Origin: Leucoraja erinacea
Lineage: Eukaryota
Direction: 5' to 3'
DNA length: 64,000 bases
Assembly (NCBI RefSeq): GCF_028641065.1
Contig: NC_073397.1
Span: 32,922,001 to 32,986,000, forward strand
The translations under genes were made by a program, and so were the position numbers. This document shows, piece after piece, positions 5,496 through 36,329 of this stretch. Positions within the stretch are counted from its first letter, which is position 1. Each line of letters starts with the position of its first letter. Under the pieces are notes generated by a model that saw nothing but the letters and a program-made list of their open reading frames with translations, searched no databases and had not been told where the DNA came from.

Positions 5496-5593
5496 GTAAT
5501 ACCTTTTCTGCAATGCAGATAATAACAAATTAATTTTAATGATCTTTGAGTGTTACAAGGTCTGTTCTGAAGAATTTCTCGTATCCTTTTCAG

Positions 5594-5672: not shown

Positions 5673-5842
5673 GTTGGTTTCAGGCAACTGAGATATGCTA
5701 TGTTCTAATATTATGCTTCGTCTATTCTTCTGCACTATTTCAGCTGACTTTTCCTACATGAATCAATACATTTTTTCCTTTCACCTATCTTTTAAACTCT
5801 ACGATTTGGCACATGTTGAAGAAAGTTAAGCAAATTAAGTTC

Positions 5843-7464: not shown

Positions 7465-9401
7465 GTATAACAAATCTATCTTGAGCGTATGTTTCTAAGA
7501 AGTTAATATTTTTTTGTGTCGCGGAAATGTTACGAAATGCACTATAAACTTCACATCTTTGCATATGACGACAAGTACATCCAGCCAGTTGATGAGCTGT
7601 TTTCTGTGTTACTGTACATGGTGATTTTACTTGTATTATTCAAAATTATGTGGTTCTATTCTGGTACTAAATCTTCTAGGAAACAAATCTTGAACTTGAT
7701 CCATGCAAAATGAATCGGTGAATTCTCTGATTGTATTGCTACATTAATCAGATTTTGCAGGTCACTTATACGCTAAATAGTATTTTTGATTGGTATTGTG
7801 ATATGGCTTACCCAATAAATTAACCGTTATATATTTAAGTTCAAAGGTAATTTAAATGTAGACTTAAAGGGAAGTGAATGACATCTCATTCAAATGGGAG
7901 AGTTGATAGATGTGTAAGATGAGTTGAGATCTCACAGAATACTGGAGCAGATCCAGAAAGCCTATGGCTCAATATTTTAACATAAGAAATGGGAGCCTGT
8001 GTTTTCATTCTGCCATTGTGAGCTTGTTCTGCCGTGCATCGTGATCATAGCTGAACTCTGGTTCCGTTGTCTGCTTATCCCAACATCCCTTGATTAATTT
8101 CATACCCTGAAACCTATAGATCACTGTTTGAATGGACGATGACAGAGCCCCTACGGTCGGGGAAGAGAATCCCAAAGATTCCGGAGCCAATATCTAGCTT
8201 GCAATAACTTTCACATTTCAGTGAGATATCCTTTCAATCTCAACTCAAGAACACAGGCTAAATCTATTGGATATCATCCAGCAAATCCAACCTCCCTGGA
8301 ACCAGTCTATTGAATCTTCTTTGCATTCCCCCTGTGGATACATTCACTTTTAGGTCATGGGATCAAAACTAGTTACTTCAGTTGCACAATCACCAAGGTC
8401 CTACGTATTGCAATAAGATATCTTCTATATTCAAATCCTTCTGTTATGTGCCAATATATCATATACGTTCCTAATTACATGGTGTTCCTTCATATTTATT
8501 TTCAATAAACTTGTGTGCAAAAAGATAAAGGTCCCTTTGAACATAAGCATTACCCATTCTCTTTTTAAACATTGGTATTCTGCCTTTTTGTTATGCACTT
8601 GTGGAGAAAGTCACATTTTATTGGCCATATTCTCGCTATCTCAACTTGTCTATATATTTTTGAAGCCGCCTTACATTCCCTACCCCAGTCTCAATCCCGT
8701 CAAAATTTTGTGTCTACGGCAAATTCTGAAATGTGATATTTGGTCCCCTCAGCCCTTTCACCGATCTCGGCACCCATCTCTGCAGTATTTATTGAGGCTC
8801 AACCTGCCAATTGAAGTATCCATTTATTCCCACTCTGCTTTCTACCTGGTGACCAATTCTTAATCCTGTCAGTATAATGCCCCAAAAGTCCTAATTTAAT
8901 TGCAACATGCCATGTGAGTGACCATTTTGAAAGCTTTATGAAAACCCAAACACGCAATTCATTTTTTTCCCCTCCGTCCTAGTCTGATCCTCAAAGAACT
9001 CTTGGTGATTAATCAAAAGCTATTTTCGTTTCTCGACTTCCAGTTTATTGTATCCAATCTTGGATTCCAGCACGTTCTGTACTACTGATATGAGCCTAAT
9101 AGATCTGTGGTTCTGTTTCTCTCCCGTTTGATATTGTGGTGTCACATTTGCTCTTCTCTAATCCACAGGAACAATTCTACAATTTTTTAGACAAATACTA
9201 TTCCTATAGGCACCTTTTTCAAAACACTGTACATTATCATCTTGCCAATTCTGAGTTTTTTTTTGTCCTTAAACTAATATTACCTTCAATTCGTCAATTC
9301 TACCAGACCTTTGGTGTTCGCTCTTTTTCTGGCATGTCCTTTTGTTCTATGTGAATGGCCGTTTAACAAAAAAGTTATTTATGTGATTTGTTTCTTTCTA
9401 G

Positions 9402-9524
9402 GTTGAATATAAAGACTTTCCAAAAAACAACAAAAATGAGTATGTGTCATTGATAAATTGTTCATCCCAACCTCCTCTGATCAGCCATGGAATTGGAAAA
9501 GATGTTGAGTCTTGTCATGACATG
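9402..9524 (+). CDS. STAU1: STAU1 exon (dsRBD5)
   Basis: [41 protein letters not shown]; AG/GT boundaries; 123 nt. Confidence 0.95.
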
Positions 9525-9660
9525 GTAAAACAAAACTTCATAATTTTAAAACTTGTTCATAAAGTCTTGATGAAACGATTTGAAATTGCCGGTAATTGGT
9601 GGATTGGGATTCTAGAATAGTCTTACTAAAGTAGTTAACATTTATTTTCTCCCTTTCCAG

Positions 9661-9746
9661 GCTGCTCTTAATATCTTAAAATTGTTGTCTGAGCTGGACC
9701 AACAAAATGTAGAAATATCAAGAACAGGAAATGGACCAATTGCTGT
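9661..9746 (+). CDS. STAU1: STAU1 penultimate exon
   Basis: [28 protein letters not shown](V); donor GTAAGT at 9747; phase 2. Confidence 0.93.
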
Positions 9747-10722
9747 GTAAGTGTAAAGTGTTTCTCTTTCATTTAATCCTCTAAATCTCTCAGGGTTAAG
9801 GGTGTCATACTTCCTACTTCCACTCCAGTTTTGAGGCGATTGAAGCCAATTTGGAGCCATGGACTACCACCAATTGTTTTGGCAGACATTTGTTGGGGCT
9901 GAATGGTTAGGCACTCCTACTGGACTCACGTGTGTTCCTGGCAAAATTCAGGTTATCAGTGTTATCCTCGATGCTCCACATTTTTGAGAGGTTATGGGCC
10001 AGGGTTTCCATAATTTGGTGAAGATGGCATTTTTGCTCACCCCCCAGGAAGTCTTTAATCCATTCTGAAATAATTTCCTCAAACCTGACGATCCAAGATC
10101 ATGGAACTTGGAAGGGAGTGCCTGTCTATTTTTGTTTTTGCATGGCATGCAAAGAAGATTTAAGGCTTTTGGAAAAGACTAGGAAAATAGAGTAAACAAC
10201 TGTGAAAACTAGATAATTTGGAGTTTGCAGAAGAAGAATCGACCTAATTGCCCATCAATTGATTAAATGGCCATCAAAGGGCCAAAGGGCATCATAGTGG
10301 CGCATTTGGTAAATCTGCTGTCTTGCAACAGCTGAGATCTGCATTTGATTCTGACCTTGGGTGCTGTCTATGGAGGTTGCATGTCCTTCCTGTAACCACG
10401 TGGGTTTCCATTGGGTGAACCGGTTTCCTCCCACATCCCAAAGACGTTCGGGTTTGCAGATGGATTGCCGTCTGTAAATCACCCCTATAGTGTCTAGAGA
10501 GTGGGTGAGGAAGTGGGATAATGGAACTAGTGTTAATTGGTGGTCAATGGTTGACATGGCATTTGTGGGGGAACAAAATGGTATTGTTTGTTCAGATTCT
10601 GTATCAACATAGATCGTAATTCCAGGCATCTTGAGCAATATGGATTGTTTAATTGAATCTACACTTATGACGAGATATTTTTTCCATAACATTTTATTGA
10701 AAAATCATCCTCTTATTTTCAG

Positions 10723-10810
10723 ATGCGTGAAACAAGAAATTGATGGAGACACTCTCATCAAACCGGCTAACTCAAACACTTTAGGACAAACACTGGATGT
10801 CACTGACTGA
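10723..10810 (+). CDS. STAU1: STAU1 last coding exon with stop codon
   Basis: TTTTCAG acceptor, phase-compatible with the previous exon; CVKQEIDGDTLIKPANSNTLGQTLDVTD* resembles the non-mammalian STAU1 C-terminus. Confidence 0.88.
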
Positions 10811-16949: not shown

Positions 16950-17655
16950 AATTAATTGCATTTGATTTTGCTCCAGATTCTAGCACCAGGTGTCTCTCAA
17001 GTCTATTGCATTAGATTTTACTCCAAAACTCCGAACTGCCTGGGTTGCACCAATAACTTTGTGCTTGCTTTGTATTTGTTTTTATTTATTGAACATTTTG
17101 TTTGTTGAAACGTGGAACAGTAGGTGCTGGTTTACACAAAAGGGCACAAAGTGCTGAAGTAATTCAGCAGGTCAGGCACTGGCAGCATGTCAAAACGTAG
17201 ATACACGGATCTCGAGTCTTTGCATTGGATATTGCTCCAGATTCCAGCTTGACTATTGCATTGGACCTTGCTCCAGATTATAGCATCTGTCATCTATTGT
17301 CTCCACAGTATTGCATCTTGCTCCAGATTCCATCTTGACACTACAGCAATGGACCTTGCTCCATATTCCAGCTTCACTCTACTGCATGGGACATTGCTCC
17401 AAATTCAAGTTTGACCATACTACACTGGCAGAGAGACACAAAGTGCTGGACTAACTCAGCGGGACAGGCAGCATATCGGGATGGAAGAAATGGGTGGCGT
17501 GACCCGCTGTGTTATTCCAGCACTTTGTGTCCAACTTTGGTTTAAACCAGCATTCCCACACACTGCATGCACCTTGCTGCAGATTCCAGCCTCACTCTCT
17601 ACTAATCTACTAACATGCACATTGTTGCAGATTCCAGCCTGACTCTACTACACTG
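16950..17655 (+). repeat. Degenerate ~38-40 bp minisatellite upstream of the host-gene promoter
   Basis: Recurring TTGCATTGGA..TTGCTCCAGATTCCAGC.T.ACT units, interrupted by a palindromic repeat. Confidence 0.6.
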
Positions 17656-17712
17656 CAGACCAACACAGAAAGCTGCAGAAACTTAGCATGAAAGATACTA
17701 GAGGAGCTCCTC

Positions 17713-17750: not shown

Positions 17751-17924
17751 TTTCCTTCGCTCCATAGATGCTGCTGCACCCGCTGAGTTTCTCCAGCTTT
17801 TTTGTGTAACCTCCTCTATTATAATTTGGGCAGCATCTCTGGAGAGACCACGTCACTGAGGGACGTCTCCGTGTCTATCACAGATAAGCCACACCCCTCA
17901 TGAATGGTAATGAGATGAGGCGGC

Positions 17925-18120
17925 GATGTAAGGGGACGGCACATGCGCGAGGGGGCCATATAAGGGTACAGCGCATGCGTTAGCGGGGCATATGAGGGTA
18001 CGGCGCATGCGTGAGGGGGGGGGGGGGGGGGGGGGGGGCTTATAAGGGTATGGCGCATGCGTGAGGGGGGCATATAAGCCGTTGCGCGGCGGCCATCGGT
18101 CTCTGTTGGTGGCGAGTGAG
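17925..18120 (+). promoter_or_regulatory. CpG-rich promoter plus exon 1 of the snoRNA host gene (most diverged copy, P0)
   Basis: Four NRF1-like GCGCATGCG sites, CArG-like CCATATAAGG, TATAA at 18073, YY1-like GCGGCCAT, pyrimidine start CTCT at 18101 (28 nt after TATA), donor GAG|GTGAGT at 18121. Confidence 0.7.
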
Positions 18121-18312
18121 GTGAGTGGTGGTGCGGTCTCTCCCTCTCCCCCCTCCCTGTACACACACTACCCCCCCCCCCCCACACGCTCTTCCCCCCC
18201 TCACTGACTCTCTCCCCCACAAACTCTTCCCCCCCCCCACACACAACCTCCACACCCCCCCCCCCCCCCCCACACACACATTCTCCCGCTCTTCCCCCCC
18301 CCCCCTCTGTCT

Positions 18313-18620: not shown

Positions 18621-19324
18621 TCTCTTCCCCGCCAATACTTCTGTTGCTTCATGCTGTTTGTGTTTTCTATGTTGATTTGTATTTAATAATTTTAAATGTA
18701 CGCTTTCATATTGTTTAGTTAACTTTGATCCGCGTAGTTACTGGTTGCCCAATGCGAGATATCGAAGCGTAATGTTTAGCTTTAGTGATAAAGTTAAACA
18801 TATGATATTTTTTAATATGCTATTATGCATTTTTATGTAATGTTGCACCTTGTCTGGACCTTGTGTCCGAAATAAAGTTAATTAAATTAAAGCGCGGAAT
18901 CAGACCCTTCGGCCCACGCCGACCCGCACACAAATACTAGGCCGCGACTGTCCATTTTTTTACCAAAGCCAATTAACCTACAAACCTGCACGCCTTTGGA
19001 GTGTGGGACGAAACCGAAGCACCCGGGGAAAAACCCACGCGTTCACGGGGAGAATGTACAAATTCCGTACAGACAGCAGCCGAGGACAGGATCAATTAAT
19101 GTCTTGCTGGACTTTGTGAATGGGCACATTTAGCTACTCGTGTTAGGTTACACTGTTAATGCTGGCTTTCTGCAGTGATTTCAATGAGGATTTTAAAAGT
19201 CAGTATTTGTCAATTCGCAGATAAACCACACCCCTCATGAATGGTAATGAGATGCGCATGTGGAGCAGTGGGTGCAGCCAGCTCAGGTACATTGCTAATT
19301 AATCCTTCAGCTAATCTTCTCAGT

Positions 19325-19408
19325 CTAGTAAATGATGTTGAAACTTTTTTCCCCGTCTTATCGATCATGCTGATTATGAGCAAATAAGCCAAATGTATCT
19401 GATGCTAG
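19325..19408 (+). ncRNA. SNORD12: Box C/D snoRNA, SNORD12/SNORD106 family, copy A
   Basis: Terminal stem CTAGTA/TGCTAG, C box ATGATGT, guide CTTTTTTCCCCGT before D' CTTA, C' ATGCTGA, D box CTGA; resembles remembered human SNORD12B/C. Confidence 0.85.
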
Positions 19409-19549
19409 CAAAAACGTTGGTTAAATCTGGCACTTTTTTGAGTACAAACTGACCCGAGTTTACTTTTCCAGGTGTGAAGAGCTCCGAGAAACAGCTGCAG
19501 ATCCAGGTAGGTGTTGGTACTTTTTTTGGGGGTGGGAATAGGTTAGTTA

Positions 19550-20343
19550 CAGTGCCCTCTATAATGTTTGGGACAAAGACCCATCATTTATTTATTTGCC
19601 TCTACTCCACAATTTTGGATTTGTAATAGAAAAAAAATCACATGTGGTTAAATTGCACATTGTCAGATATTAACCATATATAACCATATAACAATTACAG
19701 CACGGAAACAGGCCATCTCGGCCCTACAAGTCCATCCCCTAGTCCCATCTACCTACACTCAGACCATAACCCTCCATTCCTTTCCCATCCATATCTATCC
19801 AATTTATTTTTGAAGGATAAAATCGAACCTCCACCATTTCCACTTGGAAGCTCATTCCACACAGCTACCACTCTGAGTAAAGAAGTTCCCCCTCATGTTG
19901 CCCCTAAGCATAAGATAAAGATGGCTGCAACATAGGCCTGGCACAGCATCACCTAGCCAGGCCTGTATTGCAGCCATCTTTATCTTATGCTTTTTTTGAA
20001 TTTTTGGGACTTTTTATTTGCTGTGGAGGTCTTTCCTTGGCCTGCCAGTCCCTTTGCGATTAGTAAACTCGCCAGTGCTCTCTTTCTTCTTAATGATGTT
20101 CCAAACAGTTGATTTTGGTAAGACGAAGGTAGGGCTGATGTCTCTTTAACAGTTTTATTCTTCTTTCTCAGCCTTTCATTGGCACAACTTTGGCCCTCAC
20201 TTTGATGCATAATTTTCTGCATAAATGTGCATTTTAACCACATGGTGATTTTTTTTCTCTTTCCTATTACAAATCTCAAATTGTGGAGCAGAGGCAAGTA
20301 AACAAATCATGGGCCTTTGTCCCAAACATTATGGAGGGCACTG
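19550..20343 (-). mobile_element. Non-autonomous Tc1 element (type A interior) with nested CR1 fragment
   Basis: TA|CAGTGCCCTC.ATAATGTTTGGGACAAAG TIR and its inverse; frameshifted transposase N-terminus (RLRKKNKTV...GKTSTA) on the minus strand. Confidence 0.85.
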
Positions 20344-20520
20344 TGTATCGATTGAGCTCTACCACACTGCAGAACAGCACAAAAAGCTGCAGTAACTCAG
20401 CGGTACAGGCAGCATCTCTAGAGAGACGTTGCTCTGTCTGTGACTAGCACAGAAGCCACACCACTCATGAATGAGTAGTAATGAGGCGGATATATAAGAT
20501 TGCAGTGCATGTTTGATGGC

Positions 20521-20748
20521 CATATATGGTTATGGTGCATGCGTGTGGACTATATAAGGTCACGGCGCATGCGTGCGAACTATATAAGGTCACGGCGCAT
20601 GCGTGGGGGCTATATAAGGTCACGGCGCATGCGTGCGAACTATATAAGGTCACGGCGCATGCACAAGGGCCATATAAAGGTTCCTGTGCAGGCGTGAGGG
20701 CTATATAAGCCGCAGCGCAGCGGCCATTGGTAGATTGGTGATGAGGAG
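20521..20748 (+). promoter_or_regulatory. Duplicated promoter P1: 30-bp NRF1/TATA minisatellite plus mini exon 1
   Basis: Units of TATATAAGGTCACGGCGCATGCGTG, final TATATAAG, GCGGCCAT, donor GAG|GTGTGT; further copies at 23438-23753, 26596-26789, 29516-29769 and 32823-33106. Confidence 0.65.
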
Positions 20749-20779
20749 GTGTGTTGGTGCGGTCTCTCATCTTCTCTCT

Positions 20780-21070
20780 ATCCCTGCACTATCACCCTGC
20801 CTGCTCTCACTCTCTCCCTGCCTGCACTCACTCTCTCCCTGCCTGCACTCGCTTTCTCTCCCTGCCTGCTCTCTGTTTCTCCCACTCTTCACTCTCTCTC
20901 TCCCTGCCTGCACTCTCTCTCTCCCTGCCTGCTCTCTCTTTCTCCCTGCCTGCACTCTCTTTCTCCCACTCTTCACTCTCTCTCTCCCTGCCTGCACTCT
21001 CTCTCTCCCTGCCTGCACTCTCTCTCTCTCTCTCTCTCTCTCCCCCCTTCACACTCCCCGCACTCTCTCA
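20780..21070 (+). repeat. Pyrimidine-rich ~20-22 bp minisatellite (CTCTCCCTGCCTGCA) and (CT)n in intron 1 of each unit
   Basis: Directly visible; length varies between units; produces low-complexity spurious ORFs. Confidence 0.9.
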
Positions 21071-21309
21071 CTGCACTTCCACCACCGTAGTCTCTCACCA
21101 TCTCCCCCGGGCCCCGAGATCTGCCTCCCCTGGCACTGCCTGGCCCGCTGTAGCTTCATGCTGTTTATGGAGCAGAGGCAATCATCCACGATGATTTTGT
21201 TGATTGTATTTAATAAAAGACTATATTTGACTTTGAAATTGTTTATTTTTATTAATCCATGTCGTATTGCTTGCTCAAGTGAGATCAGTGGAATAATGTT
21301 TAGCTTTAA

Positions 21310-21940
21310 GGCCCTGTCCCACTTGCGTGTCCTTGGCACGCAAATCACGAGCCTTCCTCGTCGCGTTGACGAGCACGGGCATCATGTGGCCGCACGGGGC
21401 AGGTCCACTGAGAAGCGCGGAGGGGTATGGAGTCGTGCGCGGTATCGCGGCGCTCCAAAATTTTGTAGTGAACAAAATCTTTGCGCGCCACCGGCCTGTC
21501 GCATAACTGACGGCCAAAGTGGGGCAGGCCCAAGACCCTGGCACGACGCAACGTCTCGCCTCCAAAAGCAGCTGAATCAAGCAAACGATCGCCGTTGCGG
21601 TCGGTATCCGCCCCCACTTCTACTCCCAGAGCGGGGCCAAGAAAATTGAAGATAGACACAAAATGCTGGAGTAACTCAGCGGGACCGGCAGCATCTCTGG
21701 AGAGAAGAAGGAATAGATGACGTTCGGGTCAAGATCCTTCTTTCAAATTGAAGAAGTCTCGACCCGAAACATCACCCATTGCTTCTCTCCAGATATGCTG
21801 CCGGTCCCGCTGAGTTAGTCCTGCATTTTGTGTCTATCGTCAAATGACGTCACGCGCACCAGAAGGCTGTGCGGGTGCATGAAGTCGCGCGTGACCGTCG
21901 AGTAATTGGCGTGCCAAGGACACGCAAGTGGGACAGGGGC
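21310..21940. mobile_element. PIF/Harbinger-like MITE containing a nested palindromic repeat (21650-21838)
   Basis: ~32-bp TIRs GGCCCTGTCCCACTTGCGTGTCCTTGGCACGC / GCGTGCCAAGGACACGCAAGTGGGACAGGGGC, TAA at the left; copies at 24356-24986, 27386-28009, 30418-31048 and partial at ~33620-33865. Confidence 0.65.
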
Positions 21941-22347
21941 TCAAGAGACAAAGCGCGGAAACGGGCCCTTGGCCCACCGAGTCCATGCCGACCCGCACAT
22001 AAGTACTAGGTCGGGACAGTCACAATTTATTACCGAAGCCAATTGATCTACAAACCTAGACGTCTTTGTGTTATTTTGGTTTAGAAACGCAGTGCGGAAA
22101 CGGAGTTACCCAGCATTTTGTGCGTATCTTTTTATAAACATCAATGCTGGCTTTCTGCAGTGAGTGTTTTTCTGAACAGCAGTGGTTTAAAATTGTACAT
22201 CGTGATAGATTTAAAAATTGTGGTGAATTAAGTATGAATGTTGTCTTCCTGCATAGGGTGGATGCAGAAATGGATGTCACATGTGGAGCAGTGGGTGCAG
22301 CCAGCTCAGGTACATTGCTAATTAATCCTTCAGCTAATCTTCTCAGT

Positions 22348-22431
22348 GTAGTAAATGATGTTGAAACTTTTTTCCCCGTCTTATCGATAATGCTGATTAT
22401 GAGCAAATAAGGCAAATGTATCTGATGCTAG
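22348..22431 (+). ncRNA. SNORD12: SNORD12-family snoRNA, copy B (3 substitutions)
   Basis: Same boxes and guide; changes in the 5' stem, ATCGATA and TAAGGCA. Confidence 0.8.
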
Positions 22432-22569
22432 CAAAGACATTGGTTAAATGTGGCACCTTTTTGAGTACGAACTGACTCGAGTTTACTTTTCCAGGTGTGA
22501 AGAGCGAGGAATAGCTGCAGATCCAGGTAGGTGTTGGTACTTTTATGGGGGGTGGGAATAGGTTAGTTA

Positions 22570-23260
22570 CAGTGCCCTCTATAATGTTTGGGACAAAGAC
22601 CCATCATTTATTTATTTGCGTCTCTACTCCACAATTTTGGATTTGTAATAGAAAAAAAATCACATGTGGTTAAATTGCACGTTGTCAGATATTAACCATA
22701 TAACAATTACAGCACGGAAACAGGCCATCTCGGCCCTACAAGTCCATGCCGAACAATTATTTTCCCCTAGTCCCATCTACCTACACTCAGACCATAACCC
22801 TCCATTCCTTTCCCATCCATATACCTATCCAATTTATGTTTGAATGATAAAATCGAACCTGCCTCCACCACTTCCACTGGAAGCTCATTCCACACAGCTA
22901 CCACTCTCTGAGTAAAGAAGTTCCCCCTCATGTCACCCCTAAACTTCTGTTCCTTAATTCTGAAGTCGTGTCCTCTTGTTTGAATCTTCCCTACTCTCAA
23001 TGGGGAAAAGCTTGTCCACGTCAACTCTGTCTATCCCTCTCATCATTTTAAAGACCTCTATCAAAGTTTTATTCTTCTTTCTCAGTCTCATAATGGCTTC
23101 TTTGACTTTAAATTGGCACAACTTTGGCCCTCACTTTGATGCATCATTTTAATCACATGGTGATTTCTTTTTTCTCTTTCCTATTACAAGTCTCAAATTG
23201 TGGAGCAGAGGCAAGTAAACAAATCATGAGCCTTTGTCCCAAACATTATGGAGGGCACTG
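22570..23260 (-). mobile_element. Non-autonomous Tc1 element (type B interior) with nested CR1 fragment
   Basis: TIRs flanked by TA at both ends; CR1 TRGH...FFTQRVV remnant inside. Confidence 0.85.
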
Positions 23261-25393
23261 TATCGATCGAGCAGTACCACACTGCAGAACAGCACAAAAA
23301 GCTGCAGTAACTCAGCGGTACAGGCAGCAACTCTGGAGAGCCGTTGCTGTGTCTGTCTAGCACAGAAGCCACACCACTCATGAATGAGTAGTAATGAGGC
23401 GGATATATAAGATTGCAGTGCATGTTTGATGGCCATATATGGTTATGGCGCATGCGTGTGGATTATATAAGGTCACGGCGCATGCGTGTGAACTGTATAA
23501 GGTCACGGTGCATGCGTGGGGACTATATAAGGTCACGGCGCATGCGTGTGAACTGTATAAGGTCACGGTGCATGCGTGGGGACTATATAAGGTCACGGCG
23601 CATGCGTGGCGGCTATATAAGGTCACGGCGCATGCACAAGGGCCATATAAGGGGGCGGCGCATGCACAAGGGCCATATACGGGTTCCTGTGCAGGCGTGA
23701 GGCGGCTATATAAGCCGCAGCGCAGCGGCCATTGGTAGATTGGTGATGAGGAGGTGTGTTGGTGCGGTCTCTCATCTTCTCTCTATCCCTGCACTATTGC
23801 CATGCCTGCTCTCACTCTCTCCCTGCCTGCTCTCACTCTCTCCCTGCCTGCTCTCACTCTCTCCCTGCCTGCTCTCACTCTCTCCCTGCCTGCTCTCACT
23901 CTCTCCCTGCCTGCACTCACTCTCTCTCCCTGCCTGCTCTCTCTCTTCTCCCTGCCTGCACTCTCTTTCTCCCTGCCTGCACTCTCTCTCTCCCTGCCTG
24001 CACTCTCTTTCTCCCACTCTTCACTCTCTTTCTCCCTGCCTGCACTCTCTCTCTCCCTGCCTGCACTCTCTCTCTCTCTCTCTCTCTCCCCCCTTCACAC
24101 TCCCCGCACTCTCTCACTGCACTTCCACCACCCTAGTCTCTCACCATCTCCCCCGGGCCCCGAGATCTGCCTCCCCCGGCACTGCCTGGCCCGCTGTAGC
24201 TTCATGCTGTTTATGGAGCAGAGGCAATCATCCACGATGATTTTGTTGATTGTATTTAATAAAAGACTATATTTGACTTTGAAATTGTTTATTTTTATTA
24301 ATCCATGTGGTATTGCTTGCTCAAGTGAGATCAGTGGAATAATGTTTAGCTTTAAGGCCCTGTCCCACTTGCGTGTCCTTGGCACGCAAATCACGAGCCT
24401 TCCTCATCGCGTTGACGAGCACGGGCATCATGTGGCCGCACGAGGCAGGTCCACTGAGAAGCGCGGAGGGGTATGGAGTCGTGCGCGGTATCGCGGCGCT
24501 GCAAAATTTTGTAGTGAACAAAATCTTTGAGCGCCACCGGCCTGTCGCATAACTGACGGCCAAAGTGGGGCAGGCCCAAGACCCTGGCACGACGCAACGT
24601 CTCGCCTCCAAAAGCAGCTGAATCAAGCAAACGATCGCCGTTGCGGTCGGTATCCGCCCCCACTTCTACTCCCAGAGCGGGGCCAAGAAAATTGAAGATA
24701 GACACAAAATGCTGGAGTAACTCAGCGGGACCGGCAGCATCTCTGGAGAGAAGAAGGAATAGATGACGTTCGGGTCAAGATCCTTCTTTCAAATTGAAGA
24801 AGTCTCGACCCGAAACGTCACCCATTGCTTCTCTCCAGATATGCTGCCGGTCCCGCTGAGTTAGTCCTGCATTTTGTGTCTATCGTCAAATGACGTCACG
24901 CGCACCAGAAGGCTGTGCGGGTGCATGAAGTCGCGCGTGACCGTCGAGTAATTGGCGTGCCAAGGACACGCAAGTGGGACAGGGGCACAAGAGACAAAGC
25001 GCGGAAACGGGCCCTTGGCCCACCGAGTCCACGCCGACCCGCACATAAGTACTAGGTCAGGACAGTCACAATTTATTACCGAAGCCAATTGATCTACAAA
25101 CCTAGACGTCTTTGTGTTATTTTGGTTTAGAAACGCAGTGCGGAAACGGAGTTACCCAGCATTTTGTGCGTATCTTTTTATAAACATCAATGCTGGCTTT
25201 CTGCAGTGAGTGTTTTTCTGAACAGCAGTGGTTTAAAATTGTACATCGTGATAGATTTAAAAATTGTGGTGAATTAAGTATGAATGTTGTCTTCCTGCAT
25301 AGGGTGGATGCAGAAATGGATGTCACATGTGGAGCAGTGGGGGCAGGCAGCTCAGGTACATTGCTAATTAATCCTTCAGCTAATCTTCTCAGT

Positions 25394-25477
25394 CTAGTAA
25401 ATGATGTTGAAACTTTTTTCCCCGTCTTATCGATCATGCTGATTATGAGCAAATAAGCCAAATGTATCTGATGCTAG
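25394..25477 (+). ncRNA. SNORD12: SNORD12-family snoRNA, copy C
   Basis: Identical to copy A. Confidence 0.85.
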
Positions 25478-25618
25478 CAAAGACATTGGTTAAATGTGGC
25501 ACCTTTTTGAGAACGAACTGACTCGAGTTTACTTTTCCAGGTGTGAAGAGCTCCGAGAAACAGCTGCAGATCCAGGTAGGTGTTGGTACTTTTTTTGGGG
25601 GTGGGAATAAGTTAGTTA

Positions 25619-26416
25619 CAGTGCCCTCTATAATGTTTGGGACAAAGACCCATCATTTATTTATTTGCCTCTACTCCACAATTTTGGATTTGTAATAGAA
25701 AAATAATCACATGTGGTTAAATTGCGCATTGTCAGATATTAACCATATATAACCATATAACAATTACAGCACGGAAACAGGCCATCTCGGCCCTACAAGT
25801 CCATCCCCTAGTCCCATCTACCTACACTCAGACCATAACCCTCCATTCCTTTCCCATCCATATACCTATCCAATTTATTTTTGAATGATAAAATCGAACC
25901 TCCACCACTTCCACTTGGAAGCTCATTCCACACAGCTACCACTCTCTGAGTAAAGAAGTTCCCCCTCATGTTGCCCCAAAGCATAAGATAAAGATGGCTG
26001 CCACATAGGCCTGGCACAGCATCACCTAGCCAGGCCTGTATTGCAGCCATCTTTATCTTATGCTTTTTTTGAGTGTTTGGGAATTTTTATTTGCTGTGGA
26101 GGTCTTTCCTTGGCCTGCCAGTCCCTTTGCGATTAGTAAACTCGCCAGTGCTCTCTTTCTTCTTAATGATGTTCCAAACAGTTGATTTTGGTTAGACGAA
26201 GGTAGGGCTGATGTCTCTTTAACAGTTTTATTCTTCTTTCTCAGCCTTTCATTGGCACAACTTTGGCCCTCACTTTGATGCATAATTTTCTGCATAAATG
26301 TGCATTTTAACCACATGGTGATTTTTTTTCTCTTTCCTATTACAAATCTCAAATTGTGGAGCAGAGGCAAGTAAACAAATCATGGGCCTTTGTCCCAAAC
26401 ATTATGGAGGGCACTG
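25619..26416 (-). mobile_element. Tc1 element, type A
   Basis: As 19550-20343. Confidence 0.85.
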
Positions 26417-28416
26417 TGTATCGATTGAGCTCTACCACACTGCAGAACAGCACAAAAAGCTGCAGTAACTCAGCGGTACAGGCAGCATCTCTAGAGACGT
26501 TGCTCTGTCTGTGACTAGCACAGAAGCCACACCACTCATGAATGAGTAGTAATGAGGCGGATATATAAGATTGCAGTGCATGTTTGATGTCCATATATGG
26601 TTATGGCGCATGTGTGTGGACTATATAAGGTCACGGCGCATGCGTGCGAACTATATAAGGTCACGGCGCTTGCGTGGGGGCTATATAAGGTCACGGCGCA
26701 TGCACAAGGGCCATATACGGGTTCCTGTGCAGGCGTGAGGGCTATATAAGCCGCAGCGCAGCGGCCATTGGTAGATTGGTGATGAGGAGGTGTGTTGGTG
26801 CGGTCTCTCATCTTCTCTCTATCCCTGCACTATCGCCCTGCCTGCACTCACTCTCTCCCTGCCTGCACTCACTCTCTCCCTGCCTGCATTCGCTCTCTCT
26901 CTCTCCCAGCCTGCACTCTCTTTCTCCCTGCCTGCACTCTCTTTCTCCCACTCTTCACTCTCTTTCTCCCTGCCTGCACTCTCTCTCCCTGCCTGCACTC
27001 TCTCTCTCCCTGCCTGCACTCTCTCTCTCCCAGCCTGCACTCTCTTTCTCTCACTCTCTTTCTCCCACTCTTCACTCTCTCTCTCCCTGCCTGCACTCTC
27101 TCTCTCTCTCTCTCTCTCCCCCCTTCACACTCCCCGCACTCTCTCACTGCACTTCCACCACCGTAGTCTCTCACCATCTCCCCCGGGCCCCGAGATCTGC
27201 CTCCCCCGGCACTGCCTGGCCCGCTGTAGCTTCATGCTGTTTATGGAGCAGAGGCAATCATCCGCGGTGATTTTGTTGATTGTATTTAATAAAAGACTAT
27301 ATTTGACTTTGAAATTGTTTATTTTTATTAATCCATGTGGTGTTGCTTGCTCAAGTGAGATCAGTGGAATAATGTTTAGCTTTAAGGCCCTGTCCCACTT
27401 GCGTGTCCTTGGCACGCAAATCACGAGCCTTCCTCATCGCGTTGACGAGCACGGGCATCATGTGGCCGCACGGGGCAGGTCCACTGAGAAGCGCGGAGGG
27501 GTATGGAGTCGTGCGCGGTATCGCGGCGCTCCAAAATTTTGTGGTGAACAAAATCTTTGCGCGCCACCGGCCTGTCGCATAACTGACGTCCAAAGTGGGG
27601 CAGGCCCAAGACCCTGGCACGACGCAACGTCTCGCCTCCAAAAGCAGCTGAATCAAGCAAACGATCGCCGTTGCGGTCGGTATCCGCCCCCACTTCTACT
27701 CCCAGAGCGGGGCCAAGAAAATTGAAGATAGACACAAAATGCTGGAGTAACTCAGCGGGACCGGCAGCATCTCTGGAGAGAAGAAGGAATAGATGACGTT
27801 CGGGTCAAGATCCTTCTTTCACATTGAAGAAGTCTCGACCCGAAACGTCACCCAGTGATCCAGATATGCTGCCGGTCCCGCTGAGTTAGTCCTGCATTTT
27901 GTGTCTATCGTCAAATGACGTCACGCGCACCAGAAGGCTGTGCGGGTGCATGAAGTCGCGCGTGACCGTCGAGTAATTGGCGTGCCAAGGACACGCAAGT
28001 GGGACGGGCACAAGAGACAAAGCGCGGAAACGGGCCCTTGGCCCACCGAGTCCACGCCGACCCGCACATAAGTACTAGGTCGGGATAGTCACAATTTATT
28101 ACCGAAGCCAATTGATCTACAAACCTAGACGTCTTTGTGTTATTTTGGTTTAGAAACACAGTGCAGAAACGGAGTTACCCAGCATTTTGTGCGTATCTTT
28201 TTATAAACATCAATGCTGGCTTTCTGCAGTGAGTGTTTTTCTGAACAGCAGTGGTTTAAAATTGTACATCGTGATAGATTTAAAAATTGTGGTGAATTAA
28301 GTATGAATGTTGTCTTCCTGCATAGGGTGGATGCAGAAATGGATGTCACCTGTGGAGCAGTGGGGGCAGGCAGCTCAGGTACATTGCTAATTAATCCTTC
28401 AGCTAATCTTCTCAGT

Positions 28417-28500
28417 CTAGTAAATGATGTTGAAACTTTTTTCCCCGTCTTATCGATCATGCTGATTATGAGCAAATAAGCCAAATGTATCTGATGCTAG
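28417..28500 (+). ncRNA. SNORD12: SNORD12-family snoRNA, copy D
   Basis: Identical to copy A. Confidence 0.85.
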
Positions 28501-28637
28501 CAAAGACATTGGTTAAATCTGGCACCTTTTTGAGTACGAACTGACTCGAGTTTACTTTTCCAGGTGTGAAGAGCGAGGAATAGCTGCAGAGCCAGGTAGG
28601 TGTTGGTACTTTTATGGGGGTGGGAATAGGTTAGTTA

Positions 28638-29338
28638 CAGTGCCCTCTATAATGTTTGGGACAAAGACCCATCATTTATTTATTTCCCTCTCTACTCCAC
28701 AATTTTGGATTTGTAATAGAAAGAAAATCACACGTGGTTAAATTGCACATTGTCAGATATTAACCATATATAACCATATAACAATTACAGCACGGAAACA
28801 GGCCATCTCGGCCCTACAAGTCCATGCCGAACAATTATTTTCCCCTAGTCCCATCTACCTACACTCAGACTATAACCCTCCATTCCTTTCCCATCCATAT
28901 ACCTATCCAATTTATTTTTGAATGATAAATTCGAACCTTCCTCCACCACGTCCACTGGAAGCTCATTCCACACAGCTACCACTCTCTGAGTAAAGAAGTT
29001 CCCCCTCATGTCACCCCTAAACTTCTGTTCCTTAATTCTGAAGTCGTGTCCTCTTGTTTGAATCTTCCCTACTCTCAATGGGGAAAAGCTTGTCCACGTC
29101 AACTCTGTCTATCCCTCTCATCATTTTAAAGACCTCTATCAAAGTTTTATTCTTCTTTCTCAGTCTCATAATGGCTTCTTTGACTTTAAATTGGCACAAC
29201 TTTGGCCCTCACTTTGATGCATCATTTTAATCACATGGTGATTTCTTTTTTCTCTTTCCTATTACAAATCTCAAATTGTGGAGCAGAGGCAAGTAAACAA
29301 ATCATGAGCCTTTGTCCCAAACATTATGGAGGGCACTG
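28638..29338 (-). mobile_element. Tc1 element, type B
   Basis: As 22570-23260. Confidence 0.85.
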
Positions 29339-30099
29339 TATCGATCGAGCAGTACCACACTGCAGAACAGCACAAAAAGCTGCAGTAACTCAGCGGTACA
29401 GGCAGCAACTCTGGAGAGACGTTGCTGTGTCTGTCTAGCACAGAAGCCACACCACTCATGAATGAGTAGTAATGAGGCGGATATATAAGATTGCAGTGCA
29501 TGTTTGATGGCCATATATGGTTATGGCGCATGCGTGTGGACTATATAAGGTCACGGCGCATGCGTGGGGACTATATAAGGTCACGGCGCATGCGTGGGGA
29601 CTATATAAGGTCACGGCGCATGCATGGGGACTATAAGGTCACGGCGCATGCACAAGGGCCATATAAGGGGGCGGCGCATGCACAAGGGCCATATAAAGGT
29701 TCCTGCGCGGGCGTGAGACGGCTATATAAGCCGCAGCGCAGCGGCCATTGGTAGATTGGTGATGAGGAGGTGTGTTGGTGCGGTCTCATCTTCTCTCTTT
29801 CCCTGCACTATCGCCCTGCCTGCTCTCACTCTCTCTCCCTGCCTGCACTCGCTCTCTCCCTGCCTGCACTTGCTCTCTCTCCCTGCCTGTACTCACTCTC
29901 TCTCCCTGCCTGCTCTCTCTTTCTCCCTGCCTGCACTCTCTTTCTCCCACTCTTCACTCTCTTTCTCCCTGCCTGCTCTCTCTTTCTCCCTGCCTGCACT
30001 CTCTTTCTCCCACTCTTCACTCTCTTTCTCCCTGCCTGCTCTCTTTCTCCCTGCCTGCACTCTCTTTCTCCCACTCTTCACTCTCTCTCTCCCTGCCTG

Positions 30100-30144
<45 letters not shown>

Positions 30145-31731
30145 TCTCTCCCCCCTTCACACTCCCCGCACTCTCTCACTGCACTTCCACCACCGTAGTC
30201 TCTCACCATCTTCCCCGGGCCCCGAGATCTGCCTCCCCCGGCACTGCCTGGCCCGCTGTAGCTTCATGCTGTTTATGGAGCAGAGGCAATCATCCACGAT
30301 GATTTTGTTGATTGTATTTAATAAAAGGCTATATTTGACTTTGAAATTGTTTATTTTTATTAATCCATGTGGTATTGCTTGCTCAAGTGAGATCAGTGGA
30401 ATAATGTTTAGCTTTAAGGCCCTGTCCCACTTGCGTGTCCTTGGCACGCAAATCACGGGCCTTCCTCATCGCGTTGACGAGCACGGGCATCATGTGGCCG
30501 CACGGGGCAGGTCCACTGAGAAGCGCGGAGGGGTATGGAGTCGTGCGCGGTATCGCGGCGCTCCAAAATTTTGTAGTGAACAAAATCTTTGCGCGCCACC
30601 GGCCTGTCGCATAACTGACGGCCAAAGTGGGGCAGGCCCAAGACCCTGGCACGACGCAACGTCTCGCCTCCAAAAGCAGCTGAATCAAGCAAACGATCGC
30701 CGTTGCGGTCGGTATCCGCCCCCACTTCTACTCCCAGAGCGGGGCCAAGAAAATTGAAGATAGACACAAAATGCTGGAGTAACTCAGCGGGACCGGCAGC
30801 ATCTCTGGAGAGAAGAAGGAATAGATGACGTTCGGGTCAAGATCCTTCTTTCACATTGAAGAAGTCTCGACCCGAAACGTCACCCATTGCTTCTCTCCAG
30901 ATATGCTGCCGGTCCCGCTGAGTTAGTCCTGCATTTTGTGTCTATCGTCAAATGACGTCACGCGCACCAGAAGGCTGTGCGGGTGCATGAAGTCGCGCGT
31001 GACCGTCGAGTAATTGGCGTGCCAAGGACACGCAAGTGGGACAGGGGCACAAGAGACAAAGCGCGGAAACGGGCCCTTGGCCCACCGTGTCCACGCCGAC
31101 CCGCACATAAGTACTAGGTCGGGACAGTCACAATTTATTACCGAAGCCAATTGATCTACAAACCTAGACGTCTTTGTGTTATTTTGGTTTAGAAACACAG
31201 TGCGGAAACGGAGTTACCCAGCATTTTGTGCGTATCTTTTTATAAACATCAATGTGCTTAACTACAAAATTCATCTTTGCCACATAACGGCTAGAGTGAA
31301 ACTTTGGTGAGATTTAAATAGTAGATTGCGAAGCTCATGTCAAATGGTTGAGAGTTGTCATTTGGTTTCATCTTCAATCAACTGTGGCAGATGTTTGGAT
31401 TATTTGGTTACTGATTCTAGAGACTTTGGAGATTGATGAACAATGGAGCAGATTGATGTCTTGCTGGACTTTGGGAATGGGCACATTTAGCCACTCGTGT
31501 TAGGCTACACTGTTAATGCTGGCTTTCTGCAGTGAGTGTTTTCAATGAGTTTTTTCTGAACAGCAGTGGTTTAAAATTGTACATCGTGATAGATTTAAAA
31601 ATTGTGGTGAATTAAGTATGAATGTTGTCTTCCTGCACAGGGTGGATGCAGAAATGGATGTCACATGTGGAGCAGTGGGTGCAGCCAGCTCAGGTACATT
31701 GCTAATTAATCCTTCAGCTAATCTTCTCAGT

Positions 31732-31815
31732 CTAGTAAATGATGTTGAAACTTTTTTCCCCGTCTTATCGATCATGCTGATTATGAGCAAATAAGCCAAA
31801 TGTATCTGATGCTAG
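31732..31815 (+). ncRNA. SNORD12: SNORD12-family snoRNA, copy E
   Basis: Identical to copy A. Confidence 0.85.
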
Positions 31816-31953
31816 CAAAGACATTGGTTAAATCTGGCACCTTTTTGAGTACGAACTGACTCAAGTTTATTTTTTCAGGCGTGAAGAGCGAGGAATAGCT
31901 GCAGATCCAGGTAGGTGTTGGTACTTTTATGGGGGGTGGGAATAGGTTAGTTA

Positions 31954-32645
31954 CAGTGCCCTCTATAATGTTTGGGTCAAAGACCCATCATTTATTTATT
32001 TGCCTCTCTACTCCACAATTTTGGATTTGTAATGGAAAAAAAATCACATGTGGTTAAATTGCACATTGTCAGATATTAACCATATATAACCATATAACAA
32101 TTACAGCACGGAAACAGGCCATCTCGGCCCTACAAGTCCATGCCGAACAATTATTTTCCCCTAGTCCCATCTACTTACACTCAGACCACAACCCTCCATT
32201 CCTTTCCCATCCATATACCTATCCAATTTATTTTTGAATGATAAAATCGAACCTGCCTCCACCACTTCCACTCATTCCGCACAGCTACCACTCTCTGAGT
32301 AAAGAAGTTCCCCCTCATGTTACCCCTAAACTTCTGTTCCTTAATTCTGAAGTCATGTCCTCTTGTTTGAATCTTCCCTACTCTCAATGGGAAAAGCTTG
32401 TCCACGTCAAGTCTGTCTATCCCTCTCGTCATTTTAAAGACCTCTATCAAAGTTTTATTCTTCTTTCTCAGTCTCATAATGGCTTCTTTGACTTTCATTG
32501 GCACAACTTTGGCCCTCACTTTGATGCATCATTTTAACCACATGGTGATTTCTTTTTTCTCTTTCCTATTACAAATCTCAAATTGTGGAGCAGAGGCAAG
32601 TAAACAAATCACGGGCCTTTGTCCCAAACATTATGGAGGGCACTG
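31954..32645 (-). mobile_element. Tc1 element, type B
   Basis: TIRs; MRAKVVPMKVKEAIMRLRKKNKT transposase start fused to CR1 sequence. Confidence 0.85.
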
Positions 32646-34200
32646 TATCGATCGAGCAGTACCACACTGCAGAACAGCACAAAAAGCTGCAGTAACTCAG
32701 CGGTACAGGCAGCAACTCTGGAGAGACGTTGCTGTGTCTGTCTAGCACAGAAGCCACACCACTCATGAATGAGTAGTAATGAGGCGGATATATGATTGCA
32801 GTGCATGTTTGATGGCCATATATAGTTATGGCGCATGCGTGTGGACTATATAAGGTCACGGCGCATGCGTGTGAACTATATAAGGTCACGGCGCATGCGT
32901 GGGGACTATATAAGGTCACGGCGCATGCGTGGGGACTATATAAGGTCACGGCGCATGCACAAGGGCCATATAAGGGGGCGGCGCATGCACAAGGGCCATA
33001 TAAGGGGGCGGCGCATGCACAAGGGCCATATACGGGTTCCTGTGCAGGCGTGAGGCGGCTATATAAGCCGCAGCGCAGCGGCCATTGGTAGATTGGTGAT
33101 GAGGAGGTGTGTTGGTGCGGTCTCTCATCTTCTCTCTATTTCTCTCTCCCTGCACTATCACCCTGCCTGCTCTCACTCTCTCGCCCTGCCTGCACTCACT
33201 CTCTTTCTCCCTGCCTGCACTCTCTTTCTCCCTGCCTGCACTCTTTCTCCCTGCCTGCACTCTCTTTCTCCCTGCCTGCACTCTTTCTCCCTGCCTGCAC
33301 TCTCTCTCTCCCCCTGCCTGCACTCTCTCTCTCTCCCCCCTTCACACTCCCCGCACTCTCTCACTGCACTTCCACCACCGTAGTTTCTCACCATCTCCCC
33401 CGGGCCCAGAGATCTGCCTCCCCTGGCACTGCCTGGCCCGCTGTAGCTTCATGCTGTTTATGGAGCAGAGGCAATCATCCACGATGATTTTGTAAAAAGC
33501 CATTTTGTTGATTGTATTTAATAAAAGACTATTTTGACTTTGAAATTGTTTTTTTTTTTTTAATCCACATGGTATTGCTTGCTCAAGTGAGATCAGTGGA
33601 ATAATGTTTAGCTTTAAGTCCAACTTGCTGTCCTTGGCACACGCAAATTACGAGATAGCGTTGACGAGCACGGGCATCATGTGGCCGCGCGGGGCCGGTC
33701 CCACTGAGAAGCGCGGAGGGGTATGGAGTCGTGTGCGGTATCGCGGTGCTCTGAAATTTTGTAGTGAACAAAATCTTTGTGCGCCACCGGCCTCTCGTGT
33801 AACTGACGGTCAAAGTGGGACAGGCCCAAGACCCTGGCGCGACGCAACGTCTCACCTCCAAAAGCATTCCCAAAGTCCACCAAGACATCAATCTGTTCCA
33901 TTGTGAGTGAAACTTTGGTGAAATTTAAATAGTTGATTGCGAAGTTCATGTCAAATGGTTGGGGGTTGTCATTTGGTTTCCTGCTGGCTTCCTGCAGTGA
34001 TTTCAATCAGTGTTTTTTCTGAACAGCAGTGGTTTAAAATTGTACATTGTGGCGGATTTAAAAAAAAATCAAGTAGTCAATTAAGTATGAATGTTGTCTT
34101 CCTGCACAGGGTGGATGCAGAAATGGATGGCACATGTGGAGCAGTGGGTGCAGGCAGCTCAGGTACGTTGATAACTAATCCGTCGGCTAATTTTCTTATT

Positions 34201-34284
34201 CTAGTAAATGATGTTGAAACTTTTTTCCCCGTCTTATCGATCATGCTGATGTTGAGCAAATAAGCCAAATGTATCTGATGCTAG
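34201..34284 (+). ncRNA. SNORD12: SNORD12-family snoRNA, copy F
   Basis: Boxes and guide intact; GCTGATGTTGAG variant after the C' box. Confidence 0.85.
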
Positions 34285-34418
34285 CAAAGACATTGGTTAA
34301 ATCTGGCACCTTTTTGTGTACGAACTGACCCGAGTTTACTTTTCCAGGAGTGAAGAGCTGCGAGGAACAGCTGCAGATCCAGGTAGGTTCTTTTTTGGGG
34401 ATGGGAATAGGTTCCTTA

Positions 34419-34820
34419 CAGCGCCCTCCATGATGTTTGGGACAAAGGCCCATCATTTATTTATTTGCCTCTACTTCACAATTTGAGATTTGTTATAGAA
34501 AAAAAATCACATGTGGTTTCAGTGCACATTGTCCGATTTTAATAAAGGCCATTTTTATACATTTTGGTTTCACCATGTAGAAATTACAGCAATGTTTATA
34601 CGTAGTCCCGTCATTTCAGGGCACCATAATATTTGGGAAACAGCAATGTCATGTAAATTAAAGTAGTCATGTTCAGTATTATGTCCCATATCCTTTGTTT
34701 GCAATGAAGAGTGTTTCTGATCTGTCGGACAGGTGTTTGGGGATTTTTCTTTATAAATAGAGAGAATTCTTCTGTCATCAGATGTGGAGGTCTTCCTTGG
34801 CCTGCACTGAAGTCCGTTTG
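34419..34820 (-). mobile_element. Truncated Tc1 element (one TIR, no CR1 insert)
   Basis: Left TIR with inner direct repeat CAGGGCACCATAATATTTGGG (IR/DR type); RPRKTSTSDDRRIL transposase remnant. Confidence 0.8.
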
Positions 34821-34976
34821 CGTACATTGTGAAGGATTTAAAATTCAAGTTGTAAATTAAGTAAGAATGTTGTCTTCCTGCACAGGGTGGATGCAGAAAT
34901 GGATGGCACATGTGGAGCAGTGGGTGCAGGCAGCTCAGGTACGTTGATAATTAATCCGTCAGCTAATCTTCTTATT

Positions 34977-35060
34977 CTAGTAAATGATGTTGAAACTTTT
35001 TTCCCCGTCTTATCGATCATGCTGATTATGAGCAAATAAGCCAAATGTATCTGATGCTAG
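34977..35060 (+). ncRNA. SNORD12: SNORD12-family snoRNA, copy G
   Basis: Identical to copy A; 63 nt upstream of the 3' splice site. Confidence 0.85.
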
Positions 35061-36329
35061 CAAAGACATTGGTTAAATCTGGCACCTTTTTGTGTACAAA
35101 CTGACCCGAGTTTACTTTTCCAGGTGTGAAGAGCGAGGAATAGCTGCAGATCCAGGTAGGTGTTGGTACTTTTTTGGGGGTGGGGAGATGGGTTCCTTAT
35201 TTCGAGCTCTCATCACTTATTCCAACCAGGCAATTATCTCCACTTTACTAGTAGTTCACAATTTTGTTGTTTTATTGTCCAATTATAAATATTATTTTGA
35301 AATTCTAGTGATAAATAAATTGTGTATTTCCTTCCACTACCGTATGGCCTGCTCTACTTCTCCAGTAATTCATTTTTTGAGCATGTCACGAGTAGACACC
35401 ATTTTAGTGATTACATGATACTTCTTTCCCAAGTCCAAAGTTTAAGAGGAGATCGACAGAATTGTAATACAGACAACATGTTGATAGCTATTTGAGATAG
35501 TCACCAATTATCTGAAGGTGGGTCCTGACCTGAAGCGTCGCCTCTCCATATTCTCCAAGGATCCTGCCTGTCTCGCTGAGTTACTCCAGCTCCTTGTGTC
35601 CTGGAAATGCCTCAAATGGTTTAAAGGCCATGGTTTGAGTTGCTGCATGATTTTGATATATTGGTCTGAGATTCAGGAATGTTTGCGGGGTGCATGATGG
35701 GGTACCAGACACATCCAAGGTGAATGAGAGAACAGTGGTCCCCTTCTGTTGTTTTTGAATGATGACCATCAAATTGAATGACTATTCTAATTATCTGTGT
35801 ATTTTTGTTCTGAACCTTTTTCTTTTGTTTACAGAGTTGAAGCTTTCAAGAGACAATGAATTTGCGTTTGATCTCGCAAGATGTACATTTCAAATAAATG
35901 TTTTGCTTTCCTAAATTCTTTGAATATGACTTCAAATTATTGCTGGAGTGTCAAATGTCTGCATTTCAATTTACGTACTTGGTCATGCTTGCAAGTATGG
36001 CGAGGTACAGGCACCATGAACGTTTTACTTGCAGCAGTGTCACAGGCAGCCTTGGGCAATACATCCCACCCACTGTCTTGGATAATTTTTGTAAGCACAA
36101 CTGGAAAAGTAGTACAAAGTGGTGCACAGATGTCTGATGCTGAAATGGGGGATTGAGCAGGTCATAAGTGATGGGAGCAGAATTCAATTATGGCTGATCT
36201 ATCTCTCCCTCCTAACCCCATTCTCCTGCCTTCTCCCCATAACCCCTGACCAATAGCGTGTTCAAGAACCTGATGTAGGAATGTAGATATTCATGGTGTG
36301 TGACTATGGGATTCTGCCACCTTGGTGAC

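Follow-up and report, generated by a model that had tools for sequence, protein, structure and literature searches.

When a transposon lies beside the seams of a tandem gene array and is missing from its last copy, did the transposon make the array? This question arises at a locus of Leucoraja erinacea (assembly GCF_028641065.1, contig NC_073397.1, positions 32,922,001 to 32,986,000; this whole stretch of 64,000 nucleotides (nt) is called the window below), where units of ~3 kb, recognised by self-comparison of the window, make up a tandem array of a small nucleolar RNA (snoRNA) host gene. Each of the seven units, A to G, holds one SNORD12 copy; A to F also carry remnants of a Tc1 transposon, and the terminal unit G is free of it. 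An initial annotation had placed Tc1 exactly at the duplication junctions and proposed that Tc1-mediated events had duplicated the gene, either by alternative transposition or by recombination between two Tc1 copies, before unequal crossover expanded it. Our analysis of the locus points to another origin: Tc1 is probably, if only by a narrow measure, a passenger that inserted beside a junction formed through microhomology.

On its left side the element was described correctly from the beginning. The left terminal inverted repeat (TIR) occupies the same site in units A to F, namely the intron behind the exon that comes after the snoRNA. It starts at 19550, 22570, 25619, 28638, 31954 and 34419, in six of six units immediately 3′ of a TA. 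The right TIR ends at 20343, 23260, 26416, 29338 and 32645 in units A to E; a TA comes next, immediately in units B, D and E but with an additional TG in between in A and C. All 11 TIR-end matches of the window fall within the array (19550-34443; 0 expected from 100 shuffles), and no TIR match was found upstream of P0, the putative original promoter ahead of unit A, at G or elsewhere in the 64,000 nt. In the five complete remnants the inverted terminal match extends over ~110-120 nt. Unit F indeed has no right TIR, but it is not reduced to a left TIR as had been thought, since it retains a ~225-nt end with an inner repeat as well as transposase fragments.

The right side gives a different picture. 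Sequence homologous to the region upstream of P0 does follow each right TIR, as had been reported: 39 of the 45 positions of the P0 upstream segment (17643-17687, forward strand) are identical to 20357-20401, and the promoter homology continues colinearly beyond this match. However, it does not abut the element. The BLAST match starts at 20357 in A and at 23275 in B, which leaves 13 and 14 nt, respectively, between it and the TIR end (20343 in A), and alignment places the first P0-like bases ~11 nt beyond the TIR, which gives an overall range of 11-14 nt. The breakpoint alignment that had been suggested as a check, with breakpoints outside Tc1 as the outcome that would speak against the proposal, thus puts the left breakpoint at the TIR end and the right one 11-14 nt outside it. 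Moreover, the F/G junction (~34822) lies inside transposase sequence and not at a TIR. The idea that Tc1 sits exactly at the duplication junctions is not confirmed.

What, then, are the bases between the right TIR and the P0 match? In A this segment (20344-20356, forward strand) consists of TG, TA and then bases like the G flank, and an equivalent segment also follows the right TIR in B to E. The flank reads TA-TCGATCGAGCAGTACC in B, D and E and TG-TA-TCGATTGAGCTCTACC in A and C; the flank of the empty site in G is TA-TTTCGAGCTCTCATCAC, and the P0 upstream sequence is CCAGCCTGACTCTACTAC. The intervening bases align with the downstream flank of G itself, and G and P0 have the short stretch GA.CTCT in common exactly at the switch point. 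P0 has no TA where the TIR would abut (nearby TAs stand at 17600, 17603, 17608, 17611, 17646 and 17649), and 18% divergence together with the minisatellite at this place could have erased one. In B, D and E the TIR end makes up a near-perfect palindrome together with the bases after it (23257-23275 in B), and CAGT in place of CTCT in these three units may reflect template-switch correction of a quasi-palindrome.

The likeness between these flanks and G was compared with that at control TA sites. Tests with a single flank were weak, 49-913 of 5,652 sites being as good as G with flank A and 198-341 with flank B. After these results had been seen, a profile was designed that accepts the base of either A or B; when it was anchored, 23 of 5,639 control TA sites scored as well as G, with correction for five lengths. 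By length, G is matched by 0.3-0.8% of control TAs at 13-20 nt and by 2.2% at 11 nt (p 0.02). A pair hidden Markov model favoured a G origin of the segment over a P0 origin 4- to 104-fold across six settings. With moderate confidence these comparisons suggest that Tc1 is flanked like a normal TA insertion, and that the seam lies just outside the element.

The reading of G as the uninserted site was borne out. G has a bare TA at 35198-35199 and neither element nor footprint there, and the site with its downstream flank (35198-35216, forward strand) resembles the Tc1 right flanks and has a short microhomology with the P0 upstream region. Read evidence came from four out of 24 runs, in which depth ratios serve as a rough guide only. 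One contig of run X1 from organism A (35146-36180, 5 differences) and one of run X3 from organism B (35147-35538) cross the empty site. Joints between the exon 3 intron and the Tc1 end were seen in run X14 (organism C) and in X3, and the Tc1-bearing array therefore predates those species splits; the depth of the X14 joint is 336 versus ~29-38 for unique contigs, again a rough guide and not a copy number. The organisms reached by reads all appear to be multi-copy for the snoRNA region, and none of them is a single-copy outgroup. It is important to note that an empty terminal copy is not diagnostic. Any passenger that inserts into an array should leave one, because an insertion beside an internal junction cannot spread into the terminal copy.

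The reads held some further variation. Two contigs of run X3 cross the empty TA (35185-35259), with a summed depth of 95.4 at 35185 and 35225. One contig is left at 35270 (44.4), bin depth suggests that the second ends near 35249, and this second contig could stem from an allele or from a further unit that is free of Tc1. Run X17 (organism D) shows two haplotypes over 35342-35532, with 3 and 8 differences from the window, and the more distant haplotype has several alleles in common with organism C. Exact-pattern scans of metagenome, viral and genome contigs for the snoRNA core or the TIR gave no match.

Relative ages hint that the duplication is older than the insertion. Between P0 and the internal promoter, 81 of 454 aligned sites are different (17.8%), or 62 of 392 when CpG is left out, and as these segments were chosen because they could be aligned, the value should understate the distance. 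The left and right TIRs, in comparison, are 8.5-12.5% apart: A has 9 differences and C has 10 over 106 sites, and units B, D and E have 13 each over 104.

The later expansion by unequal crossing-over, the last part of the initial proposal, is supported by the mosaic structure of the units. Across Tc1 and the promoter A and C stand against B, D and E; in intron 1, A to D are ~1% apart, and in the exon 2-snoRNA region the filled unit F groups with the empty G, with which it has 8 alleles in common against A to E. Other seams of the array ignore the TIR ends, namely those of the ~36-bp P0 piece that unit A contains, of a deletion within an intron that joins two AATG words, and of a fusion between Tc1 and a long interspersed nuclear element (LINE). 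A miniature inverted-repeat transposable element (MITE) is the mirror case of Tc1, being present in the internal promoters and missing from the terminal copy P0.

Taken together, a series of ordinary events would account for the layout. The SNORD12 host gene would have been tandemly duplicated by a microhomology-mediated event that linked a position ~11-15 nt 3′ of the TA in intron 3 with one lying ~450 nt before exon 1. Later, a Tc1 of a very abundant family would have entered an internal unit at that TA by normal insertion; TA is kept on both sides of the element, and the short right flank would be native sequence. Unequal crossing-over, of which the mosaicism is the record, would then have multiplied and homogenised the units. 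With Tc1 ~13 nt from the internal junction, the element would have spread with the junction to every internal unit, and entry into the terminal G would need a crossover within those 13 nt. Finally, the element was broken differently in A/C, in B/D/E and in F by a LINE insertion and several microhomology deletions. Passenger insertion is favoured because the right flank is G-like, P0 has no matching TA and divergence is higher between the promoter duplicates than between paired TIRs; on the same points a Tc1-mediated founding duplication is not established and appears the less likely of the two.

Several observations weigh against this preference. Under a passenger model the closeness of Tc1 to the seam is a coincidence, as of the ~103-116 TAs in a unit ~2-3 are no more than 15 nt from the junction (those near the junction counted by eye). 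At 9 nt the A-or-B profile is not significant, with 16.7% of the controls as good as G (p 0.17), and the pair hidden Markov model cannot separate a G origin from random filler (ratio 0-2). The age gap between promoters and TIRs is marginal (Fisher p 0.018-0.245; 0.06-0.54 without CpG). From exon 2 to intron 3, G is only 5.6-6.9% away from A to E, and just left of the TA it differs at ~3 of 43 sites (p 0.039 if 17.8% old), so that homogenisation right up to the TA must be assumed. In addition, the left TIR of F and both TIRs of A are about equidistant (8.0-10.5%), which means that F and A to E split near the time of insertion, as an event linked to Tc1 predicts. Exchange between units can explain the young distance of G; the distal intron of P0 is 6% from the array type versus 18% for the P0 promoter.

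Possible, if in our view doubtful, is a transposase-made duplication by alternative transposition in the form of hybrid-element insertion, which would leave Tc1 at the seam and the distal copy empty. The right end of the intron-3 Tc1 would have been joined to a TA upstream of the promoter on an element-free homolog. The target may have been an already diverged internal promoter, making this a secondary duplication, which we hold to be unlikely, or P0 itself in the founding duplication, which seems quite unlikely. Such an event would explain at once the closeness of the element to the seam, the TA on both sides and the footprint-free G, and it fits both the left end, which is exact in all six units, and the apparent split of F, A to E and G at 5-10%, near the age of the TIR pairs. 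However, the right endpoint is not at the element terminus, with P0 homology only 11-14 nt beyond, and P0 offers no TA at the matching place. Alternative transposition and recombination between homologs in trans are both weakened. A P0 origin of the first 11-13 nt is also disfavoured by the 4- to 104-fold ratio given above, and their likeness to the G flank would have to be chance (23 of 5,639). Hybrid-element insertion would be conceivable if these nucleotides are filler or derive from an older state of a diverged promoter copy; the founding version is, moreover, weakly at odds with 17.8% promoter divergence versus 8.5-12.5% between TIRs. For P elements, hybrid element insertion with flanking duplications, as reportedly described by Gray and by Preston in 1996, is said to leave one element at the seam and an empty homolog-derived copy. 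That process needs an exact join between element end and target, and the array shows none. For maize Ac, PMC3744419 describes duplications by alternative transposition that end precisely at the element termini, carry the target duplication and likewise have no element at one breakpoint. The array resembles these in its element at the seam, its exact left end and its footprint-free absence at one outer breakpoint, but differs in a right end that is 11-14 nt off and in the lack of a target TA in P0. Hybrid element insertion between sister chromatids or homologs is defined in PMC2775673, and PMC7023781 offers general background.

Other routes to the same layout appear less probable. Two Tc1 insertions, in intron 3 and upstream of the promoter, could have recombined ectopically, which we consider very improbable. 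In cis this would give three copies of the element, as recombination between two Ac elements does in PMC3744419; the outer ends of the array, both upstream of P0 and at G, are free of the element, which refutes this version of the recombination between two Tc1 copies that the initial annotation had proposed. In trans, recombination between two homologs would yield one chimeric element and two empty outer sites, as observed, and the 8.5-12.5% difference between left and right TIRs could reflect such a chimera, following a logic found in PMC2775673. This version, however, requires a TA target that is absent from the P0 upstream region, and a single individual with two polymorphic insertions separated by 2 kb. 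Very unlikely too is that the junction has moved: a longer first unit with last exon and spacer would have received a normal Tc1 insertion, and a later microhomology deletion would have removed the stretch from ~13 nt right of Tc1 to the upstream region of the next promoter. This would leave the same G-like flank as a passenger insertion, and microhomology deletions are frequent in the array; on the other hand, no remnant of a last exon or spacer was found inside the array among the self-comparison matches listed, and the end of the deletion must still fall near the TIR by chance. Least credible to us is an insertion into the single-copy gene before any duplication with later clean excision from G. 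It would account for the G-like right flank and for the grouping of F with G at 8 sites, but G bears no footprint and is empty in organism B too, and the promoter duplicates look older than the insertion.

Judged by its sequence, the element is a Tc1 remnant of the inverted repeat-direct repeat (IR-DR) group, and all six copies are dead. The transposase strand is minus in all remnants. Remnant A (19550-20343), with the 3′ TIR on the left and the 5′ TIR on the right, contains the 3′ end of a LINE that we take from its translation to be CR1-like, an inverted duplication of transposase sequence (19906-19992) and a piece of the transposase N-terminus (20032-20145). Remnant C (25619-26416) is 98.2% identical to A; the inverted duplication, near the 3′ end of the transposase, forms a ~87-nt hairpin in both (25978-26066 in C). 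In B (22570-23260) the transposase start is fused to the LINE piece, and D (28638-29338), 97.0% identical to B, and E (31954-32645) are of the same type. F (34419-34822) keeps the full 3′ end and a transposase piece up to the cut at ~34822, where the G intron starts. Its left end alone has the outer and inner (~34618-34643) direct repeats ~200 nt apart, an arrangement lost by deletion in A to E; it has no LINE and carries an internal deletion of its own at ~34705. Thus there are three breakage types, A/C with more transposase and the inverted piece, B/D/E with the transposase start-LINE fusion, and F with its own deletion. Read contigs of the Tc1 family, which is very abundant in all four runs, continue past 34705 and 34805, where F departs.

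The catalytic (DD34E) region is deleted in all six remnants, and the related proteins that were found end before it is complete. A 43-residue transposase piece matches six proteins among eight candidates, and the best of them, P0001, shares 34 of 38 residues with it and has an HTH_Tnp_Tc3_2 domain (E 4e-21), versus E 0.18 only for the fragment itself against the Pfam helix-turn-helix (HTH) families. Overall, the transposase N-terminus is 82-89% identical to its relatives, including skate and eel proteins, and these have HTH_Tnp_Tc3_2 or a related HTH. A PDB sequence search with the fragment gave no matches. Atlas leads for the element reached at most 0.90, including Sleeping Beauty HTH clusters at 0.87 and 0.84, and count as leads only. 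The eel protein, 82% identical over the transposase query, hints at horizontal spread of the family. P0005, a skate gene model under the name TMCO6 isoform X2, has N-terminal sequence of this transposase at its end, through either exonisation or a prediction artefact. IR-DR Tc1 elements such as Sleeping Beauty, Frog Prince, Minos and Bari are described in PMC4120734 as having a long end of ~250 nt that contains two or three direct repeats. The array element agrees with this description in its TA site, its ~225-nt end with two direct repeats (in F) and its HTH N-terminus; it differs in that all six copies are remnants without the catalytic domain.

The SNORD12 copies lie downstream of STAU1 on the forward strand at 19322-19411 (A), 22346-22434 (B), 25391-25480 (C), 28414-28503 (D), 31729-31818 (E), 34198-34287 (F) and 34974-35063 (G). 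All exceed the gathering score of 43 for Rfam RF00581: A, C, D and E with 53.3 bits, F with 58.1, G with 57.2 and B with the lowest score, 47.8. Box C is UGAUGU in seven of seven copies (19322-35063) versus UGAUGA in the Rfam consensus, and copy B is changed further. Each copy is intronic, flanked by the GT donor and the AG acceptor of two short putative exons. P0 with a short exon 1 (17829-18122, forward strand; from the 32-bp repeat found by Tandem Repeats Finder (TRF) and alignment to the internal promoters) carries GCGCATGCG and TATAAG repeats, the exon ending at the GT donor at 18121; its promoter function is putative and suggested by these motifs. Promoter-like blocks with repeated GCGCATGCG, which we presume to be an NRF1-like motif, and TATAAG precede units A (P0) to F and are lost in G. 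The 30-32-bp repeat with GCGCATGCG, which also holds a TATA-like word, is present in three copies in P0 (17916-18019) and in ~4-8 copies in the internal promoters (e.g. 23435-23683). Upstream of P0, TRF finds a degenerate 38-bp minisatellite core (17317-17406), and looser units, read from the sequence, extend to ~17660, at the P0 side of the junction.

The first internal copy of promoter, exon 1 and intron 1 (20357-22281, forward strand, by alignment) includes the MITE, an inverted-repeat element of ~630 bp with ends that are presumably Harbinger-like. It lies in intron 1 of the internal units (21310-21940, 24356-24986, 27386-28009 and 30418-31048), is truncated after E and is missing from P0. 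In unit A, sequence comparison identifies a ~36-bp insert (19220-19255, forward strand) as a near-identical, recent copy of P0 17880-17917. It stands in for the exon 2 acceptor, and P0 transcripts can therefore not use the usual acceptor in this unit. Splice signals suggest a putative exon 2 in G (34886-34938, with homologues in B to F and the acceptor lost in A), a putative exon 3 (35124-35155), and 3′ of G a putative single last exon (35835-35898, with an acceptor signal and AATAAA at 35893), all on the forward strand. The array thus likely supplies extra promoter-plus-SNORD12 units to one shared last exon. An assembly artefact was considered and rejected, because the units are 1-10% apart with distinct deletions, and a collapsed snoRNA contig has a depth of 147.2 versus 19.2 for a unique contig of the same run (~7.7x, as a rough guide).

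The 3′ exons of STAU1 occupy the left part of the window and form the upstream neighbour of the array; an open frame at 7135-7464 (forward strand) matches Pfam Staufen_C (E 2.6e-14), and STAU1 (4785-10810) lies directly upstream of the snoRNA host on the same strand. In human, DDX27 and ZNFX1 lie between STAU1 and ZFAS1, the latter head-to-head with ZNFX1; here the neighbour seen upstream is STAU1, and the gene order around STAU1 and the snoRNA host seems to differ from the human one. Human ZFAS1 hosts three SNORD12 family members (PMC7243338), and on this ground the array gene is ZFAS1-like. Both are short-exon genes with several intronic box C/D snoRNAs of the SNORD12 family; a difference from ZFAS1 is that a ~3-kb unit made up of the promoter, exons 1-3 and a single snoRNA is repeated seven times in the array, with only one last exon. 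Further downstream, an open frame at 58170-58565 scores at the Pfam cut-off for a Somatomedin B domain (E 9.5e-5) and may belong to a downstream gene as one of its exons; two other frames, at 47943 and 62312, match ALKBH8_N and RVT_1 and are probably LINE remnants.

In the paper listings and abstract openings searched, which included few subscription papers, no report of this array or its TIR was found. In kind, the array is an amplified snoRNA host gene with a dead Tc1, and both kinds are already known. It seems doubtful that a Tc1 transposase built the seam by hybrid-element insertion in the germline of a cartilaginous fish and so seeded a lasting, concertedly evolving array. If this were true, the locus would show that alternative transposition of Tc1 had altered host gene dosage in a vertebrate in nature, by a mechanism that experiments have demonstrated for P and Ac elements. 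If the passenger reading holds, it would represent a lineage-specific amplification of a snoRNA host gene, which no fewer than three of the related organisms studied have retained. It would also be a cautionary case, in that a transposon beside a seam together with an empty terminal copy does not by itself prove that the transposon made the duplication.

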